Positions 5,140 through 17,783 of a stretch of 64,000 nt of DNA are shown piece after piece. The DNA comes from a virus, in IMG/VR virus record IMGVR_UViG_3300005663_000003, positions 1-64,000 of that record; one strand, given 5' to 3'. The notes beneath the pieces were generated by a model. It saw only the letters and a program-made list of their open reading frames with translations, had not been told where the DNA came from and made no database searches. The first letter of the stretch is position 1, and each line of letters begins with the position of its first letter. Made by a program: the position numbers and the translations under genes.

Positions 5140-5631
5140 ATGATCCACGAACTCAAGACCTGGCCTGGCCCCTTCGTCGCGTGCGCCGACGGCCTCAAGC
5201 GGTTCGAGATCCGGCGGGCCGACCGTCGTTACGCGATCGGCGACACGCTCGTCCTTCGGGAGTGGGTGCCCACTCCCGACGACCCAACTAGCGAGGGCAT
5301 CTACCCCGGGAGCTTCGGCGTCTTCGCGGTCACCTACATCTGCGAGGGCGGCGCGTCGAGAATCCCGCGCGACCTCGTCGTCATGTCCATCACGGCGATC
5401 CCGATCTTCGCCGTTCCCGCGAAGACGAACCTGGGCAAACGCATCAAGGTTCTCTGCGCCGAGGCGCTGGAGAAGATGGACCCCGAGCAGCGCAAGCAGG
5501 CGCACGGTCGAGCGGCTCAGCTCGCAGTCGAGCGACCCGACGAGGAACCGTGCGACGGGTGCCCGAGCTGTAAGCCAGCGGGTGGCCTCGGTCGTCCTCA
5601 CCTTCCCCCCAGCAGGTTCGAGTTCAATTGA
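5140..5631 (+). CDS. ASCH/DUF3850-domain protein with C-terminal CxxC motif
   Basis: MIHELKTWPGPF...GLKRFEIRRADRRYAIGDTLVLREW is the ASCH/DUF3850 signature. Confidence 0.8.
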   Translation: MIHELKTWPGPFVACADGLKRFEIRRADRRYAIGDTLVLREWVPTPDDPTSEGIYPGSFGVFAVTYICEGGASRIPRDLVVMSITAIPIFAVPAKTNLGKRIKVLCAEALEKMDPEQRKQAHGRAAQLAVERPDEEPCDGCPSCKPAGGLGRPHLPPSRFEFN

Positions 5632-6106
5632 CCAGCAAGCTCACCGAGATGGATCGGCTCGACGAGCTGGCGTCCTGGGCGAAGGACGCGAGCAACATAG
5701 CTGCCCGCGAAGCGCGGAAGCTCCTCGGGGGTGAGGTGAAGCTGGTGGGGATCGCCCCGAGGAAGGGCTGGCGCATGGCCGAGGCGGACAAAGAGAAGCG
5801 CGCCGCGATGCCCGTCGATGAGCAGCGTTACCTGATCTTCGAACGGGTGAGCTGATGCCGCTGGTGATGTTCGCCTGGTGGCTCCTTCGACCTCACGCCT
5901 TCCTCTTTGAGGAACGGCATGGACTTCAACTGACCGTGAGCGCGCGGCGAACTACGATCCGACGCCCGCGCCGGTCCCTCTTCAGTGACCGGCCCTTGAG
6001 GAGGGCCAGGGCCGGACCCCCTCAGATCGAGCGCCACGCGGGGCGCGTCAGTAGAAATGCCGCGAAGCCCCGGGCGCGGCGTTGAAGCGACCTATGTGGA
6101 AACACG

Positions 6107-6138
6107 GGCGCGCCTCACTCTACCGGGGCGCGCCTTTT
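6107..6138 (+). terminator. Intrinsic terminator
   Basis: GGCGCGCCTC-loop-GGGGCGCGCC followed by TTTT. Confidence 0.65.
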
Positions 6139-6193
6139 CCGTTGGTCGTCCCGTCGTGTATGCTGTGAGGGCAACCCAGCCAAGGAGGGACCC

Positions 6194-6517
6194 ATGGCAC
6201 TCGACGGAACCATCACCCGGGTCGGACCCGGACAGGACGTAGGCGACGGCGAGATGCTCGTGGTCGACGTGCAAGGCCCCAGCGAATACGCCAACGCCGA
6301 GGGCGGCGAAGACCCCGTGGCCGGGAACCCGTTCGGCCTGCGCCTCGGCACTCGGGTCGACTCCTGCGATGGCAGGGCGGCCGATCCGGCCAACGGCTAC
6401 GCCAAGCTGGACCCGGCGACGGGGCTGCTTCAGTTCTTCACGGCGGCCGACGTCGAGCAGGCCGACGACGCAGACCTGTCCGCCGACATCTACCGCCTCA
6501 CCCTCCAGGGTCGCTAG
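6194..6517 (+). CDS. Probable head decoration/cement protein
   Basis: Pattern Y..GG..FGL..GY..LD..LLQFF..EQADDADLS..RL..GR resembles small phage head proteins usually found after the capsid gene. Strong AGGAGG RBS, own -10 (TATGCT) and a downstream hairpin. Confidence 0.55.
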   Translation: MALDGTITRVGPGQDVGDGEMLVVDVQGPSEYANAEGGEDPVAGNPFGLRLGTRVDSCDGRAADPANGYAKLDPATGLLQFFTAADVEQADDADLSADIYRLTLQGR

Positions 6518-6820
6518 AGTTGCAGGCGGCGGGAGGGGGCGTGGCGCACAGACGCGTCCCCTCCCCGGTCGGGAGTGAGCGAACGATGTCGGGAACCGTA
6601 GCAAAGGATGCAGGAGTGGGTGGCATGATCATCCTAGAGCCTGGTCACGCGGTCAGGTTCAAAGCCCACGACTACGTTCAGTCCGAAGGCTCGCGCGAGA
6701 TTCTCACGGTGGACTGTATCCACCACGATGCCCTAGGCGTCACGCGAGGAGCACTCAACACGACGCCAGTAGACATCTCGGCGGGGTCCAGGCTTGAGCG
6801 CGTCGCCTCGGGAGTAAACG

Positions 6821-8626
6821 ATGGGCCATGAGTTCGACGCTTTCCACAGTTTCCACGCGCGGCTGCTTGAGGTAGCCGACGGGGACATCGAGGAAGCGAA
6901 GCTCCTGCTCCGAGCCAAGCGTCGAGCGGGCAACGATGCGCGCGGGCTCAACCTCGACAACCTCACCATCAACCACTTCCGCCACTCGCTCACCTTCGGC
7001 AGGTCCGGCAACATCTTCCGGGATGCTCAGCTCCTCAACGATCAGGAGCTACAGATGAATGCGCGGCGCCTCGCCTTCGGAGGCCCGCCCGCCCGCGTGC
7101 GCGAGGAGCACTCCCAGTTCTGCCTCCTCATGTTCCAGGGCTACCAGATTCGATTCCTCGACCGGCACCCCGGCGAGACCCCCGAGGCGTTCGCGAATCG
7201 TCCTCGGAAGACGGCGGTGAACATCACGCGCGTCATCATCAACGCGCTCTCCAAGCTCTACGCCAAGCGACCAGCGCGCAAGCTCGTAGAGTCGACGAGC
7301 GAGCAGGTCAAGCTCGCGTTGGTTGGCAATCAGGAAGCGGGGGTCGAGGGGATTTGGAGCGACGCCTACGACCTTGAGCTGCTGGAGGCTGATCGCTACA
7401 CGCGCCTCGAAGGGACGACCTCGGTGCGCCCCTTCTTCGACCGCGATCATCCCGGGAACATCAAGCTGGTTGTGTTCCATTCCCACCAGCTCAGGATCAT
7501 CCCGAACCCTGCGAAGCCGTGGAAGCCGCTCGCAGTCATCGAACGGCACAAGCCTTTCGAGTCGGAGGGCGCCGTCATCATCTGGACTGCCAAGAGCTTC
7601 CTCCAGCTCAACAGCGATGGCAGCGTGGACCCGAGCAGCGGTCAACACACCATGGGGCGCATCCCCCACACCTTCTTCCTCGACCGCAAGGCAGCCACCG
7701 GATCCTTCTTCGTCGAGGGCCGGGGCCGTGGGCTCTGCGATGCGAACGCGGTCATCAACGCGAAGCTCACCGACTTGAACGAGGTCTATCAATACCAGGG
7801 CTTCGCCGTTCCTGAAATCGTGAACTGGGACGAGGAGGAAGACCTGACCTTGGGCCCCCGGCGCCCCGTCCACTTCAAAGACATCCAAGGTGACCAGCCG
7901 TTCGGCATCGAGTTCAAGGCGCCCCCGCCCATGCTCAAGGAGCTGCGCGCCGAGGTCAACGCCGACATCGAGCAGCAGTTCCGCGCGAACAACGTCCCTC
8001 CCTCGGCGACCGGCGCCGAGATCAATCGGCGGTCCTTGTCGGGCCGCAGCATCCAAGAGTCGATGCGCCCGCTCCTCGAAGACCTCCAGGAACGCGCCCG
8101 GCTGTTCTCCCCCTTCGACGTCGACCTGGCCGACAACGCCTTGAGCGTTCGGGCCGAGCACGACGACGACTTCAACTATGAGCGCGAGAAGGAGAAGCCC
8201 CGGTATCACATCGACTACCAGGAGCCCGACTTCCCACTGGGCACGGACGACCGGGTGAAGTCCGAGAGCCACGACCTGGCCCACGCGATCCGAACCGAAC
8301 CCGAGATTATGATGGAGCGCGACCCCGACCGCTTCCCCACGATCGAGGACGCGCAGAAGGAGCACCAGGCGAACCTCGCCTATCAGCGTCAGAACCCGCT
8401 GGTGCAAGACGGCAGCGCCACCGAGGTCGAGGGCGAGGACTTCTTGGAGTCGCTGCTCAAGGACCACCCGCTGGCCGAGGGTGACCTGACCTGGGTGCGC
8501 GAGGAGCTGGCCGCGCTCCAGGCGCAGGCCGAGGCGGACGAGACGGGGAGCAGCAAGGCCAAGCCCAAGGCCAACGGCAACGGAGACCTGCTCGGGGAGC
8601 TGGCGCGTGGGAAGGTGAAGGCATGA
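6821..8626 (+). CDS. Portal protein (SPP1-like)
   Basis: 601 aa downstream of terminase; motifs NITRVIINALSKLY, HTMGRIPHTFF, INAKLTD..YQGF, LSGRSI. Confidence 0.85.
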   Translation: MGHEFDAFHSFHARLLEVADGDIEEAKLLLRAKRRAGNDARGLNLDNLTINHFRHSLTFGRSGNIFRDAQLLNDQELQMNARRLAFGGPPARVREEHSQFCLLMFQGYQIRFLDRHPGETPEAFANRPRKTAVNITRVIINALSKLYAKRPARKLVESTSEQVKLALVGNQEAGVEGIWSDAYDLELLEADRYTRLEGTTSVRPFFDRDHPGNIKLVVFHSHQLRIIPNPAKPWKPLAVIERHKPFESEGAVIIWTAKSFLQLNSDGSVDPSSGQHTMGRIPHTFFLDRKAATGSFFVEGRGRGLCDANAVINAKLTDLNEVYQYQGFAVPEIVNWDEEEDLTLGPRRPVHFKDIQGDQPFGIEFKAPPPMLKELRAEVNADIEQQFRANNVPPSATGAEINRRSLSGRSIQESMRPLLEDLQERARLFSPFDVDLADNALSVRAEHDDDFNYEREKEKPRYHIDYQEPDFPLGTDDRVKSESHDLAHAIRTEPEIMMERDPDRFPTIEDAQKEHQANLAYQRQNPLVQDGSATEVEGEDFLESLLKDHPLAEGDLTWVREELAALQAQAEADETGSSKAKPKANGNGDLLGELARGKVKA

Positions 8627-13144: not shown

Positions 13145-14158
13145 ATGGCGAAGAAGAAGCCACGACCCGGAGATGCCACCGTCGATGAATACCTCGACGC
13201 TGCCGATGACCTGCTCGGCGGGCTCGAAGCTGCGGCGGCGGTCAGCAAGGCCGAGGTCGCGCCGCTTCGGTTGGGGCTAGCGGTGTTCGCGCGTGAGGCT
13301 GGGCGCAAGGCCCTCGCTGGCATGAAGACCAAGCAGGTAGGCCGGGCCCGCATTCTCGTCCCCGGCGGCAAGAACGAGAAGAAGGCCATCGCCGCGAGCG
13401 AGCGGGTCCGCGATCGGTTCTCCCGGTTCAAGGTCAACTGGCTCGACAAGGGAGAAGTGAACCGGCTCATCTCGTCTGGCTTCACCAAGGCCGACCAGCG
13501 AAAGTTCTTCCGGCACAGCAACCGCCTGGCCCGGCAGTCGCGCATCTTCTTCGAGCGCCTTGGCGAGCTGGAGCCCAGCCTACAGGAGGAGATCGACGCG
13601 ACCCTCCGGCAGATCACCGACGCGCGGAACGACCTGACGAAGGTGGAGTTCCGAAGCTGGACCACGGTGCAGGAGAACCTGCTTCGGAACATCAACGGCC
13701 AGGCGTCGAGGCAAGCGACAGCCAACGCGGTCCAGACCTTCGACCTCGACCGGAACCTGTTCAACCTCGCGATGCTAGAACACCCGAAGGGCGTGGCGCG
13801 CGAGCTGCTCGCGAACAGCTCCGAGCGCATGGCCGCGCGGGTCACGAGGACGGCGAGCGAGCTACCGAAGAAGGCTCTGGTGTTCGTCGGCGCTGGGCCC
13901 GACGCGGTGAGCAAGATGACACCGGACAGCCGGGCGGCCCGCGTGATGTGGCGGGTGTTCTCGGCGGACCAACTCGACAAGCGGTTCGCCGCGCTGAACG
14001 CGGGGCGGCAGTCCAGCTCCTCGTGGCGTGGGCTGGGCCAGGCGCACAACACCCCGGAGTGGTATATCCCGATTCCGCCCGAGGTCGAGGACGACGTGAG
14101 GCGTTCGATGAGGAAGCGGCGCCAAGATTTCCTGACGCGAATCCAGATCAAAGAGTGA
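13145..14158 (+). CDS. Basic protein, possible head morphogenesis (MuF/SPP1 gp7-like)
   Basis: 337 aa, helical and basic, between portal and protease. C-terminal GLGQAHNTPEWYIP loosely recalls the MuF H-x-N motif. Leaderless start (TAGACT-6 nt-ATG). Confidence 0.45.
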   Translation: MAKKKPRPGDATVDEYLDAADDLLGGLEAAAAVSKAEVAPLRLGLAVFAREAGRKALAGMKTKQVGRARILVPGGKNEKKAIAASERVRDRFSRFKVNWLDKGEVNRLISSGFTKADQRKFFRHSNRLARQSRIFFERLGELEPSLQEEIDATLRQITDARNDLTKVEFRSWTTVQENLLRNINGQASRQATANAVQTFDLDRNLFNLAMLEHPKGVARELLANSSERMAARVTRTASELPKKALVFVGAGPDAVSKMTPDSRAARVMWRVFSADQLDKRFAALNAGRQSSSSWRGLGQAHNTPEWYIPIPPEVEDDVRRSMRKRRQDFLTRIQIKE

Positions 14159-14891
14159 AGCGATGGGCGCAGAGAGAATCCTGTGCGTGACATGCAAAAC
14201 GCCCCAACGATCGGGCGCGCTGTTCAACAGGATCGGGCTTTGCCCCACGTGCGTCGACATGACGATGGAGTTCGAGTGCAAGTGCTTCATGGAGAACGCC
14301 AAGGACGGAGACTTCGTCAAGGTCTGGTGGTCTCCAGCACGTCCCGGCAAGAGCACCACGGCGGGCTTCGTTCCACCGATGCCTTACATTCCGTGCCCAG
14401 AATGCGGGCGGTCGGATCGCATCCGGCGCATGTCCAGCGGCGGGCATGTGATGAGGATCGGAGCCGCCGACGTCGCGAGGATCGGAGCCCGGTCACAGAT
14501 CGAAGAAAGCCAGACACACAAAGGAGTGAGCGATGATCGAAGGATGGGACAAGGGACCGAGGGACCGGACGAAGAAAGGGTCGATCGCGATCCACGAATG
14601 CGCTGACTGGATTCGTCGGCTCGGGCGCCAGGTGGTCATCGAGGTCATGGACCTCAACGGACCGAAGGGACAGGAGGCGAACTCAGACGAGGGCGTGGCC
14701 TACGCCGACTTGGTCATCGGAGAAGGCGCGACCGCTCACCGCTGCCAGCTCGGGCCGGTGCGGTATGGAAGATTCCTCACTGCTGCGAGTCCTCCAATGC
14801 TTCCAACTCGCGCCGACGCGTTGCGCGAGCAGGAGCGCAGGGGACGTGCGGCGGCGGTGTTCATCTTCGAGCAGCTCAAGGAGGCCCTGGC

Positions 14892-15558: not shown

Positions 15559-15837
15559 ATGATGCGCCACCAACCGGTGATGCACAGCGACAGCGGGGGC
15601 GCGGCGAAGAAGCAGCGCGGCGGCTACACGCAGCCATCGACGAAGCCGGGAGGGATGGCGAAGGCGCAGAGGACTCGCGGCGGGGTCGTCCACACCGTCG
15701 TCTGCAAACCGGAGAAGACCGTGGGCTCCGTCGCTGGCTTGGCGAGGGTCGAGCCCGAGAACGTGGCGCCGAAGGTCGGACGGAACGACCCATGCCCGTG
15801 CGGCAGCGGGCTCAAGTCGAAGCGGTGCTGCGCGTGA
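15559..15837 (+). CDS. SEC-C motif protein
   Basis: C-terminal [20 protein letters not shown]. Confidence 0.85.
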
Positions 15838-16230
15838 CGACGCGGCCACTCGCCGACCTCCTTGCCGATTGCTGGCTGCGCGGCGGCACTCCGAACATGC
15901 TCAGGATGGGACCGGTTCAGACCCGACTGTATCGGCGATGGATTCAGAGCGGCGCACTCGCGACCGTGGCGAAGCGCAACCACGCCCGAGCGACCAAGGG
16001 AGCGCGGCGCAGGAACCGAGGGCGCGGCACGTTCGCGCGCTGCCGATGAATGAAGGCAACGAAGTCAAGCGAACCGTCGAGCAAGTGATGCGCGGCGGCA
16101 AGATCGTCCCGATGCGCGAGCTGCGGAAGGGCGACCGCTTCACGTATCGCGGCAAAGAGTGGGACGCGACAACCGACGCAAGCTGGTGCGAGTCGCACGA
16201 GTGTTGGGAAGTCAACGCCAGGGGGCCAGT

Positions 16231-16638
16231 GTGAAGCGCGGTGGCTATCTCAAGCGCAGCTCGCCGATGCTCCGAGGCGGGAGCGCGCTACGTCGAGGCG
16301 CACCGCTCAAGCGCGGCACCCCCATCAACCAGGTCAACGTCGAGCGCCTCGCTAGACGGCGGGCGGTCCAGTTCTCACACCAGTCGGACCGTTGCCACGA
16401 GCTTCCGTGCTGCGCTTGCGGGATCGAAGACGGCCACATCCAGGCGGCACATATCAAGAGTCGCGCGAGCGGTGGCAAGGACCGCGCCAATATCGTGCCT
16501 TTGTGCTTCGCTTGTCATGGTGCGCAAGGTCAGGAAGGAATCGACACGTTTCAGAGACGGCGCGAAATCGACCTGCAAAGGATCGCAGATGAGATTTGCG
16601 ATCAACTCGAACGCGAGGGTGTCACATGGACCGAGTGA
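16231..16638 (+). CDS. HNH-type nuclease (Ref/DUF968-like)
   Basis: PCCACG...QAAHIKSRASGGKD..NIVPLCFACH. Confidence 0.8.
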   Translation: MKRGGYLKRSSPMLRGGSALRRGAPLKRGTPINQVNVERLARRRAVQFSHQSDRCHELPCCACGIEDGHIQAAHIKSRASGGKDRANIVPLCFACHGAQGQEGIDTFQRRREIDLQRIADEICDQLEREGVTWTE

Positions 16639-17153
16639 TTTCCATCTGCAAAGTATGCAGGGAAAGTGACGTCCACGCGAAAGGACGTTGCGCAAGATGC
16701 GCCGCCTACTGGAGACGGACTGGTCGAGAGAGGCCAACAGATCGACTGCTCCTATTCGCCAGAGGCGAGAACCACTGCGCTTGGAAGGGAGACGACGCCA
16801 GCACGACTACGAAGCGCGAGAGAGCGCAGAGGATGTATTCACTCGGGTCGTGTGATGAGTGCGGAAAGGCTGCGCACGACAGGCATCATCGAGATAGCGA
16901 CACCGGAAATAATGCACCCGAGAACATCGGGAAACTTTGTCGGCGCTGCCACATGGCCGAGGATGGCCGACTCGAAGCGTTCAGGAAACTTGCCAGGTCG
17001 AACGCTGAAAAGATGCGCAAGCCTCCTCGGAAGTGTCGGATCTGCCCGCGCATGACGACGGTCATCAGGAAAGGCAGATGCCATACTTGCGCGATGTATT
17101 ACCGCAGGCGCGGTGTTGAGCGTCCGTCAATCCTGCATCGCGCGAGGGCGTGA
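16626..17153 (+). CDS. Free-standing HNH endonuclease with flanking zinc fingers
   Basis: CDECG..DRHHRDSDTGNNAPENIGKLCRRCH plus two KGRCxxC repeats; codons visibly more AT-rich than neighbours. Confidence 0.85.
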   Translation: MDRVISICKVCRESDVHAKGRCARCAAYWRRTGRERPTDRLLLFARGENHCAWKGDDASTTTKRERAQRMYSLGSCDECGKAAHDRHHRDSDTGNNAPENIGKLCRRCHMAEDGRLEAFRKLARSNAEKMRKPPRKCRICPRMTTVIRKGRCHTCAMYYRRRGVERPSILHRARA

Positions 17154-17160
17154 CGTGGTC

Positions 17161-17358
17161 GTGAGGTCCGTCCGCTCGGGCTGCGCCTACATGGGCGCCC
17201 CTGTCGGGACTGAGGCGTGTTCCAAGCCAGGCTGACGTCGCGGCTTCCAGGTGAAGGTCTTCGCCTGCACAAAGCTCGGGCGGGCCTCCTTCCGCAAGAT
17301 CCCGGGCAGCGCGACCCCCGCGTGTGAGGGGTGTCCTCACTTCTCGTCTGCCAAGTGA
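17161..17358 (+). CDS. Candidate selenoprotein, 65 aa (in-frame TGA at 17233-17235 read as Sec); alternatively a pseudogene
   Basis: MRSVRSGCAYMGAPVGTEACSKPG*RRGFQVKVFACTKLGRASFRKIPGSATPACEGCPHFSSAK fills most of the intergenic gap. A SECIS-like hairpin starts 12 nt after the TGA. Confidence 0.6.
17248..17267 (+). promoter_or_regulatory. Bacterial SECIS-like hairpin
   Basis: CAGGTGAA GGTC TTCGCCTG; the apical A-GGUC-U matches my recollection of the E. coli fdhF SECIS loop. Confidence 0.55.
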
Positions 17359-17417
17359 GGCAGATGGGGGGCCCGTGATGTATGCTCCCGGGAGAACCAA
17401 TCTCCTGAGGAGGAACC

Positions 17418-17783
17418 ATGGGCGCCAAGACTTACAATCGGGACAAGGATCCCGATACCAACGCGACCCCCATCGACATCACCTACGATGGCGCGGAGAC
17501 CCCGACGGCCGAGGCACCGCTCGCGGTTGGCACGACCGGCGAAGCCGCCATCACGGTGCTCGCCGACGCCGACGAGAGCGGCGGCATCGACGTCCAGCCG
17601 CTCTACACCGTGAGCCTCGTCCCCGTCATCGACGCGGCGGCTCCCGGCGGGCAGCGGCTGACCGTCACCGTCACGCCCATCCTGGGCGGAGGCGGCAGCG
17701 GCACGCCCCTGGTCTTCACTGCCCCTCACCCCGAGACGATGGACGCGTGGCAGACCGCAGCCGGTCGGCCGCAGCAGGTCTAG
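17418..17783 (+). CDS. Probable small virion protein
   Basis: Thr/Ala/Val-rich; strong GAGGAGG RBS; -10 TATGCT at 17381; downstream hairpin. Confidence 0.6.
   Translation: MGAKTYNRDKDPDTNATPIDITYDGAETPTAEAPLAVGTTGEAAITVLADADESGGIDVQPLYTVSLVPVIDAAAPGGQRLTVTVTPILGGGGSGTPLVFTAPHPETMDAWQTAAGRPQQV

Follow-up and report, generated by a model that had tools for sequence, protein, structure and literature searches.

We describe here a small cysteine-rich phage gene that contains a UGA codon in frame, found in the first 64,000 nucleotides (nt) of the IMG/VR virus record IMGVR_UViG_3300005663_000003; this 64-kb stretch is called the window below, and the full record is 86,671 bp long, with direct terminal repeats and a G+C content of 65.7%. 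Judged by sequence comparison, positions 17155-17358 form a single gene for a protein of 67 residues, with coding sequence before as well as after the UGA. Translation through this UGA, which is conserved and occupies an invariant Cys position, is well supported and very likely, and we consider it probable that the UGA is decoded as selenocysteine (Sec) by the SelB machinery of the host. The fuller proposal, to which we give somewhat better than even chances, is a true selenoprotein of a phage-only family, in which Sec would replace a Cys of a CxxC-type knuckle, host SelB and tRNA-Sec would be used, and the Sec insertion sequence (SECIS) would derive from a latent hairpin in Lys-Val-Phe codons. 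A selenoprotein had been proposed for this locus in the original prediction, made from the nucleotide sequence alone, and the comparative tests reported here support that proposal on five counts: conservation of the TGA, Cys at its position in relatives, coding past it, the distribution of the hairpin that follows it, and the presence of the TGA in assembled contigs.

A single reading frame through the TGA

From GTG 17161 the frame reads MRSVRSGCAYMGAPVGTEACSKPG, then the TGA at 17233-17235, then RRGFQVKVFAC...SSAK and the final TGA at 17356-17358, exactly as first described. That description took GTG 17161 as the start; this codon is in frame, but GTG 17155, in the same frame, is the likelier one, being preferred because it lies 6 nt after a GAGGG and is the only start common to the relative L001, in which the stretch GAGGGCGTGAC-GTG before the gene is identical. 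A Cys does lie 5 codons before the TGA, but the other Cys number four rather than the predicted five, for a total of 5 besides the TGA codon. In this frame, third codon positions have a GC fraction (GC3) of 0.80-0.90 over ~17100-17340, on either side of the TGA, versus ~0.6 in the other two phases, and on this ground we take the frame to be real.

The TGA itself was checked in assemblies. Logan contigs of 4 sequencing runs are identical over 16900-17700, TGA included, with no variant; these are assembled contigs and not raw reads, and the 4 runs are possible sources of the stretch, so they are not independent of it. An assembly error behind the TGA is nevertheless unlikely, because the contigs of the 4 runs agree and the three records of the related lineage described next stem from three other metagenomes.

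Conservation of the TGA in a related lineage

A related lineage, whose capsid protein is 76% identical to that of the window phage, is represented by three IMG/VR records from three metagenomes (L001/L003, L002 and L004/L005). The first two loci were reached by a search with the capsid protein, and the third record and its metagenome twin by further scans; in the alignment as printed L001, L002 and L004 show no differences, and they were counted as one lineage. The small gene occupies the same place there, with 48% protein identity (43% for the next gene), and tblastn of the small protein against the related loci gave 42% identity over 64 residues (E 4e-8, the database being small), the alignment containing a stop at the matching position. 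That stop is a TGA at the aligned codon in L001, L002 and L004, and the hairpin and the final stop are kept with it. The predicted conservation of the TGA was therefore observed, in the sole other lineage found.

Several measures indicate that the sequence continues to be read as protein beyond the TGA. Gaps between the window and the related lineage are of 3, 3, 3, 6 or 9 nt, all multiples of 3. When the frames were compared with L001, the true frame scored 112 and all other frame pairs 20-77. For the part before the TGA and for the part after it alike, 0 of 5000 shuffles did as well, which bears out the expectation of conservation in the C-terminal part. The ratio of nonsynonymous to synonymous substitution rates (dN/dS) is ~0.52 upstream of the TGA and ~0.46 downstream; dS is near saturation. 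Because both halves would otherwise not be kept over such divergence, ribosomes very probably have to pass the TGA.

Further carriers of the TGA form were sought widely. Viral scans with the read-through protein (19 stretches, no relative) and with the alignment of the TGA forms or later alignments yielded no lineage beyond the known one, and a metagenome scan returned only the same contig as L004. The DNA pattern for Val-Lys-Val-Phe-Ala/Thr-Cys matched 33 viral stretches, 3 of them the known lineage and the other 30 without the family motif, while a homologous-protein search with the two TGA forms gave 4 candidates, none of which scored. Among proteins, the capsid relatives P0003, P0004, P0006, P0007, P0009 and P0010 are 55-77% identical. 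Apart from the known lineage, scans based on the capsid protein yielded four more distant records (L006-L009, 35-37% capsid identity), which were without the gene by tblastn, the best match (E 0.005) lying inside an unrelated methyltransferase-like frame. Three of these (L006, L008 and L009) have at ~5300-5900 a longer open reading frame (ORF) before the scaffold gene, its C-terminal part methyltransferase-like by eye only; no such ORF stands at the equivalent place of the window.

Cysteine-form relatives

Searched against 1.84 billion representatives at a threshold of E <= 0.001, a profile of the two TGA forms found 6 proteins (E 5e-5 to 9e-4), 5 of which have the Cys motif. The sixth, P0017 (290 aa, four repeats), is without the Cys pattern and was left out of every alignment. 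With the enlarged alignment as query, a word-based search gave 11 proteins at E <= 0.01, 5 of them members of the query and 6 new, and a viral scan supplied L012, which is the contig of P0021, as well as a fused form in the viral contig L013. The TGA-free relatives are P0016, P0018-P0027 and the L013 fusion, all phage or metagenome sequences. All 12 have Cys at the TGA column, as expected of homologs of a selenoprotein in the original prediction, and this Cys is the second of a CxxC/Cx4C knuckle. The 14-row alignment has five invariant columns, C10, C22, C27 (the TGA codon), C38 and C57, with G14, K34 and C60 nearly invariant, and the family motif can be written C-x3-G-x7-C-x2/4-C-x8-10-KVF-x-C-x17-C-x2-C. 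In the closest Cys form, P0016, the first knuckle reads CPKPSC versus CSKPG-TGA in the window; most relatives have C-x2-C there, and many Cys forms have an additional N-terminal region with a Cys pair.

Aligned by hhalign, the profile of the TGA forms and that of the 12 Cys forms match with a probability of 98.5% (E 3e-15, 62 columns). A check free of circularity used a profile of the 12 Cys forms with no TGA form in it; across six frames of the 86.7-kb genome its single match was the + strand interval 17149-17352 (E 1.2e-8), which encloses one TGA. The same profile matches all 5 records of relatives, and in the three records of the TGA lineage the match encloses 1 TGA and 1 TAG, the latter tentatively read as the stop of the upstream gene. 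With a significant profile match and every invariant Cys column, the gene is a member of the family.

No match to the domain was found in Pfam, PHROGs, NCBIfam or PDB sequences, and the fused L013 protein was likewise without one; P0025 and P0016 had no match among GenBank phages. On these searches the family is new, and all its members so far come from phage or metagenome sequences. L012 is a 56-kb viral record with an integrase, where the domain comes after the tail genes and before the integrase. L013, a 67-kb viral record with terminal repeats, carries the domain as the N-terminus of a 315-residue protein. The gene for this fusion (5992-6939) lies between a Laminin_G_3 (tail-fiber-like) gene and genes for DUF968, a glycosyltransferase and a UDP-glucose dehydrogenase, a context that hints at a link with sugar modification; the fused protein matches no known family. 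Structural neighbors in the ESM Atlas include Zn-ribbon-bearing clusters, at a template-modeling (TM) score < 0.5 and from a model with a predicted local distance difference test (pLDDT) value of 0.54; all neighbors score < 0.9 and serve as leads only. Our best guess is that the protein is an accessory, small metal-binding or redox Cys module, zinc-ribbon-like in form.

A hairpin downstream of the UGA

The original prediction had also pointed to an 8-bp stem with a GGTC loop, starting 12 nt after the TGA, as a candidate SelB-binding element. Its geometry is as described; 7 of the pairs are Watson-Crick and 1 is G.U. Of the 171 hairpins of this quality on both strands, no other has a GGTC loop. 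Both TGA lineages have it: 8/8 pairs are kept, and in 2 of them a single side differs (A-U to G.U in one, U.G to U-A in the other). Hairpin energies are -9.6 and -9.3 kcal/mol for the TGA forms; in the two Cys-form DNAs the corresponding 20 nt fold at -1.8 and -1.9. The full 8 bp is thus found in 2/2 TGA lineages and 0/2 Cys-form DNAs, the restriction to TGA forms that was predicted, with the confounder that the Cys-form phages are 56-58% G+C. Among these, the L013 DNA has the same GGTC apex with 6/8 pairs, and that of L012 has 6/8 pairs with an AATC loop.

According to a review (PMC8659212), the E. coli element has G23 and U24 in its apical loop and U17 and G23 as SelB contacts, and the distance from the UGA to its 17-nt upper stem-loop is 11 nt. 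PMC12013277 describes bacterial SECIS elements as diverse, varying between taxa, so a hairpin unlike the minimal E. coli element could still work in another host. A preprint on SECIS-like intergenic features deals with bacterial genes. In place and apex the hairpin is compatible with a SECIS, as first proposed; as evidence it is weaker than was claimed, its apex being fixed by conserved Lys-Val-Phe codons. It may plausibly have been recruited from a latent coding hairpin, and is not independent proof of Sec insertion.

This and a number of other observations weigh against decoding as Sec. The apex, AAGGTCTT, is nothing other than the codons AAG-GTC-TTC of the conserved Lys-Val-Phe, and the hairpin is not independent of the protein, because the apex and most of the stem follow from Lys-Val-Phe and Val...Ala/Thr-Cys written in GC-rich codons. 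Hairpins of equal quality number 77 on the + strand, and 17 of the 678 TGA triplets are followed by one whose start is 5-20 nt away; at such a frequency (1.2 per kb) the hairpin alone is no more than chance would give. Fold energies of 58-79-nt stretches are no better than those of shuffles (z -0.45 to +0.68). None of the 8 stem pairs is changed on both sides, i.e. there is no compensatory change, and the stem starts at different distances from the UGA, 12 nt in the window and 15 nt in L001. With this spacing and no bulged U, it is not the E. coli minimal element. A scan of 17100-17450 against Rfam (E <= 10) returned mir-346 and a small nucleolar RNA at chance level, and no SECIS family. Predicted bacterial SECIS-like structures increase with GC content, as stated in PMC12013277. 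Apart from the hairpin, a dN/dS of ~0.5 amounts to modest constraint only, independent TGA lineages number just two, and selA, selB, selD and tRNA-Sec, searched for in the phage genome, were all absent from it.

If the UGA is decoded as Sec in spite of these points, a sequence of events can be envisioned. In the window phage and in one related lineage, UGA stands in place of the second Cys of the first knuckle. In a Sec-competent host, SelB with Sec-tRNA(Sec) would bind the hairpin, which starts 12 nt downstream of the UGA (15 nt in the relative), and deliver Sec to the ribosome, giving a protein with a C-x4-U pair. Where selenium or the machinery is lacking, translation would end after 26 residues.

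Alternative explanations

Best among the alternatives, and still unlikely, is that translation stops at the UGA, the gene being truncated or split, so that a 26-residue peptide is made and what follows is either restarted at GTG 17251 or a dying remnant. The standard code does end the frame at 17235, and an ORF list made with it has a 40-aa and a 35-aa piece at the locus; GTG 17251 is conserved in L001, and the dN/dS values are only moderately below 1. Yet despite the distance between the lineages (48% identity here, 43% in the next gene), the 39-43 codons downstream keep three invariant Cys, a Pro and KVF, with no stop and with in-frame gaps only. No Shine-Dalgarno sequence precedes GTG 17251, the domain is a single chain in every Cys form, and a break exactly at an invariant Cys would lose that Cys.

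Also improbable is a leaky UGA that is read through with something other than Sec, i.e. termination at UGA-C failing at times and Trp or another near-cognate residue being inserted, with a shorter and a longer product as the outcome. A precedent for such paired products is the coat read-through protein of phage Q-beta, and UGA-C is a weak termination context; a C follows the UGA in both lineages. Any read-through would account for coding past the UGA, the hairpin is largely explained by codons, and Sec machinery is not known for the host. Against this stands the Cys column itself, which in the 12 relatives belongs to the CxxC/Cx4C pair: Trp or Arg would remove an invariant Cys, where Sec would keep its chemistry. 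Nor does the phage have a suppressor tRNA; ARAGORN found one tRNA only, a tRNA-Met. Neither leaky Trp read-through nor a split gene explains why the stop falls exactly at an invariant Cys.

It is far less likely still that the locus is not a gene at all, being instead a conserved non-coding element that serves in regulation or packaging, or else a frame open by chance in GC-rich DNA. Such DNA does hold many long spurious frames, and the adjoining 17359-17417 is conserved as DNA and could be regulatory. However, 17155-17340 has no blastn match at the DNA level and yet is matched by tblastn, one frame stands far above the other five with the GC3 signal present, and the profile of 12 proteins of unrelated source matches exactly this frame. 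Together the frame scores, the hhalign result and the match of the Cys-only profile appear largely to refute a non-coding origin.

That TGA is a sense codon genome-wide (genetic code 4 or 25, or the stop-codon recoding known in some phages) is refuted for practical purposes, as TGA is the commonest stop, ending 40 of 82 high-GC3 ORFs of >= 100 codons (TAG 32, TAA 10) besides this gene in both lineages, and as the phage is without a suppressor tRNA. A crude scan for other frames running through TGA, whose filters this gene itself failed, gave 7 rows, all with the look of neighboring genes or shadow frames.

Source and host

The runs containing the stretch are marine sediment metagenomes of 2015, together with one small run from another study; no RNA dataset is listed among them. 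One of the runs comprises just 5 million letters and may be a genome bin. Marine sediment is a habitat of many Sec-using bacteria. In 3 of the 4 runs whose contigs were compared, a second contig (14-17 kb, at higher depth) matches only 17490-17596 (107 nt, within the next gene) with 17 differences, and probably belongs to a related phage from the same sediment.

Neither the small protein family nor the capsid lineage was confirmed in 185,579 species genomes, where the pattern-matched stretches held 0/8 and 0/39 relatives, respectively. No close cultured phage was found: the terminase is 27% identical to those of Vibrio phages, the capsid protein 27-28% identical to those of Bacillus and Brevibacillus phages, and a 790-aa protein of the phage has no match among cultured phages.

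Gene neighborhood

The small gene is set among small accessory genes and, as the original prediction had it, upstream of the head module (Table 1). In that module, part of a 505-aa protein is scaffold-like (phrog_15003, E 1.6e-5), and the major capsid protein is of the SU10 type (PF17236, E 1.1e-36).

Table 1. Features at and around the UGA-containing gene, in window coordinates.
Feature	Coordinates	Strand	Details
Upstream 185-codon ORF, called 'HNH' in the original prediction	16596..17153	+	Insertion absent from relatives; context only
Shine-Dalgarno-like GAGGG	17144..17148	+	6 nt before GTG 17155
Small Cys-rich gene	17155..17358	+	67 codons including one in-frame TGA, plus final TGA stop
In-frame TGA, proposed Sec codon	17233..17235	+	Codon 27 counted from 17155
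8-bp hairpin with GGTC loop, candidate SelB-binding (SECIS-like) element	17248..17267	+	CAGGTGAA-GGTC-TTCGCCTG
Terminal TGA stop after ...SSAK	17356..17358	+	Same ...SSAK-TGA end in L001
Intergenic block to the ATG of the next gene (17418)	17359..17417	+	DNA-level conservation with long invariant runs in the alignment; context only, outside the coding claim

The 185-codon ORF has no tblastn match in L001 or L002, where the small gene comes directly after the homolog of window 16159-16638 (region compared: L001 3792-4133). Because of this direct adjacency in the related lineage, we take 16596-17153 to be an insertion. Its description as an HNH gene holds only in part: there is an HNH-like motif by eye, but no Pfam or PHROG match. 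The sequence CGCGAGGG-GT-AC-TGG is present at both ends of the insertion (16612-16630 and 17141-17158), which therefore looks like the insertion of a mobile endonuclease that duplicated the 3' end of its target. Within the ORF, 95 nt match gene 55 of Mycobacterium phage Jung at 76%, a match too short for naming a host.

Downstream of the small gene, blastn aligns the window with the related lineage at 70% identity over 17347-17475. Here 17353-17417, corresponding to L001 4340-4405 (AAGTGAGG-AGATGG...GGCCCGT...TGTATGCTCCC), is conserved at the DNA level above its flanking genes, and may be a promoter or other control region for the head genes. The first motif of this block, in the AAGTGAGG region, has a looser copy with 3 mismatches at 1273-1287, near the terminase gene; at <=3 mismatches it has 7 matches versus 1.8 expected.

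The accessory region, from 13145-14158 to the head genes, is rich in small Cys-rich proteins. A 92-residue ORF at 15559-15837 has at its C-terminus a SEC-C motif (PF02810, E 1.9e-8), which is a small metal-binding tail rich in Cys; the ORF is a further Cys-rich accessory gene of the same cluster. Another ORF, of 147 residues (14163-14606), has several CxxC pairs and no family match.

Implications and comparison with known systems

Decoding of Sec is known from cells and from a few animal viruses. A full-text literature search, its results viewed at the level of abstracts, returned no paper describing a natural bacteriophage selenoprotein gene. If the proposal holds, phages would exploit a specialized recoding system of their hosts, and the synthesis of a phage protein would be tied to the selenium status and supply of the host. 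The gene would act as a host marker, since the host must use Sec, and gene callers would systematically miss or truncate such phage genes. At 67 residues, the protein would also offer a very small natural Cys/Sec pair for studying what selenium contributes to a Cys-rich module.

The nearest likeness is to bacterial selenoprotein genes of the E. coli fdhF type, which similarly have UGA where homologs have Cys, a hairpin within the ORF directly 3' of it, and coding that continues to a normal stop. The fdhF element likewise has G and U in its apical loop, and the GGUC loop closed by A-U found here resembles its apex. The present case differs in that the gene is phage-borne and without the machinery, belongs to a new family, has no bulged U, and has its stem at 12 or 15 nt and not 11. 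Within its own family, the Cys forms have the same domain with the same five invariant Cys columns, and those with a known contig are in viral records; they differ in having Cys (mostly as CxxC) in contrast to the Cx4-UGA found here and in being without the full hairpin, and one is fused to a 250-residue domain.

In phage stop-codon recoding, late genes have TAG or TGA decoded as sense; many genes are affected, and suppressor tRNAs are often present as well. An internal stop would be read as sense here too, but at one codon in one gene, in a genome where TGA is the commonest true stop. Among eukaryotic viruses, molluscum contagiosum and fowlpox viruses encode selenoproteins that are homologs of glutathione peroxidase, with a SECIS in the 3' untranslated region. 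There, as proposed here, a virus gene depends on host machinery; those genes, however, are captured host genes of known function with the SECIS beyond the coding region, whereas the phage gene has a candidate hairpin of the bacterial type within its ORF and belongs to a phage-only family.

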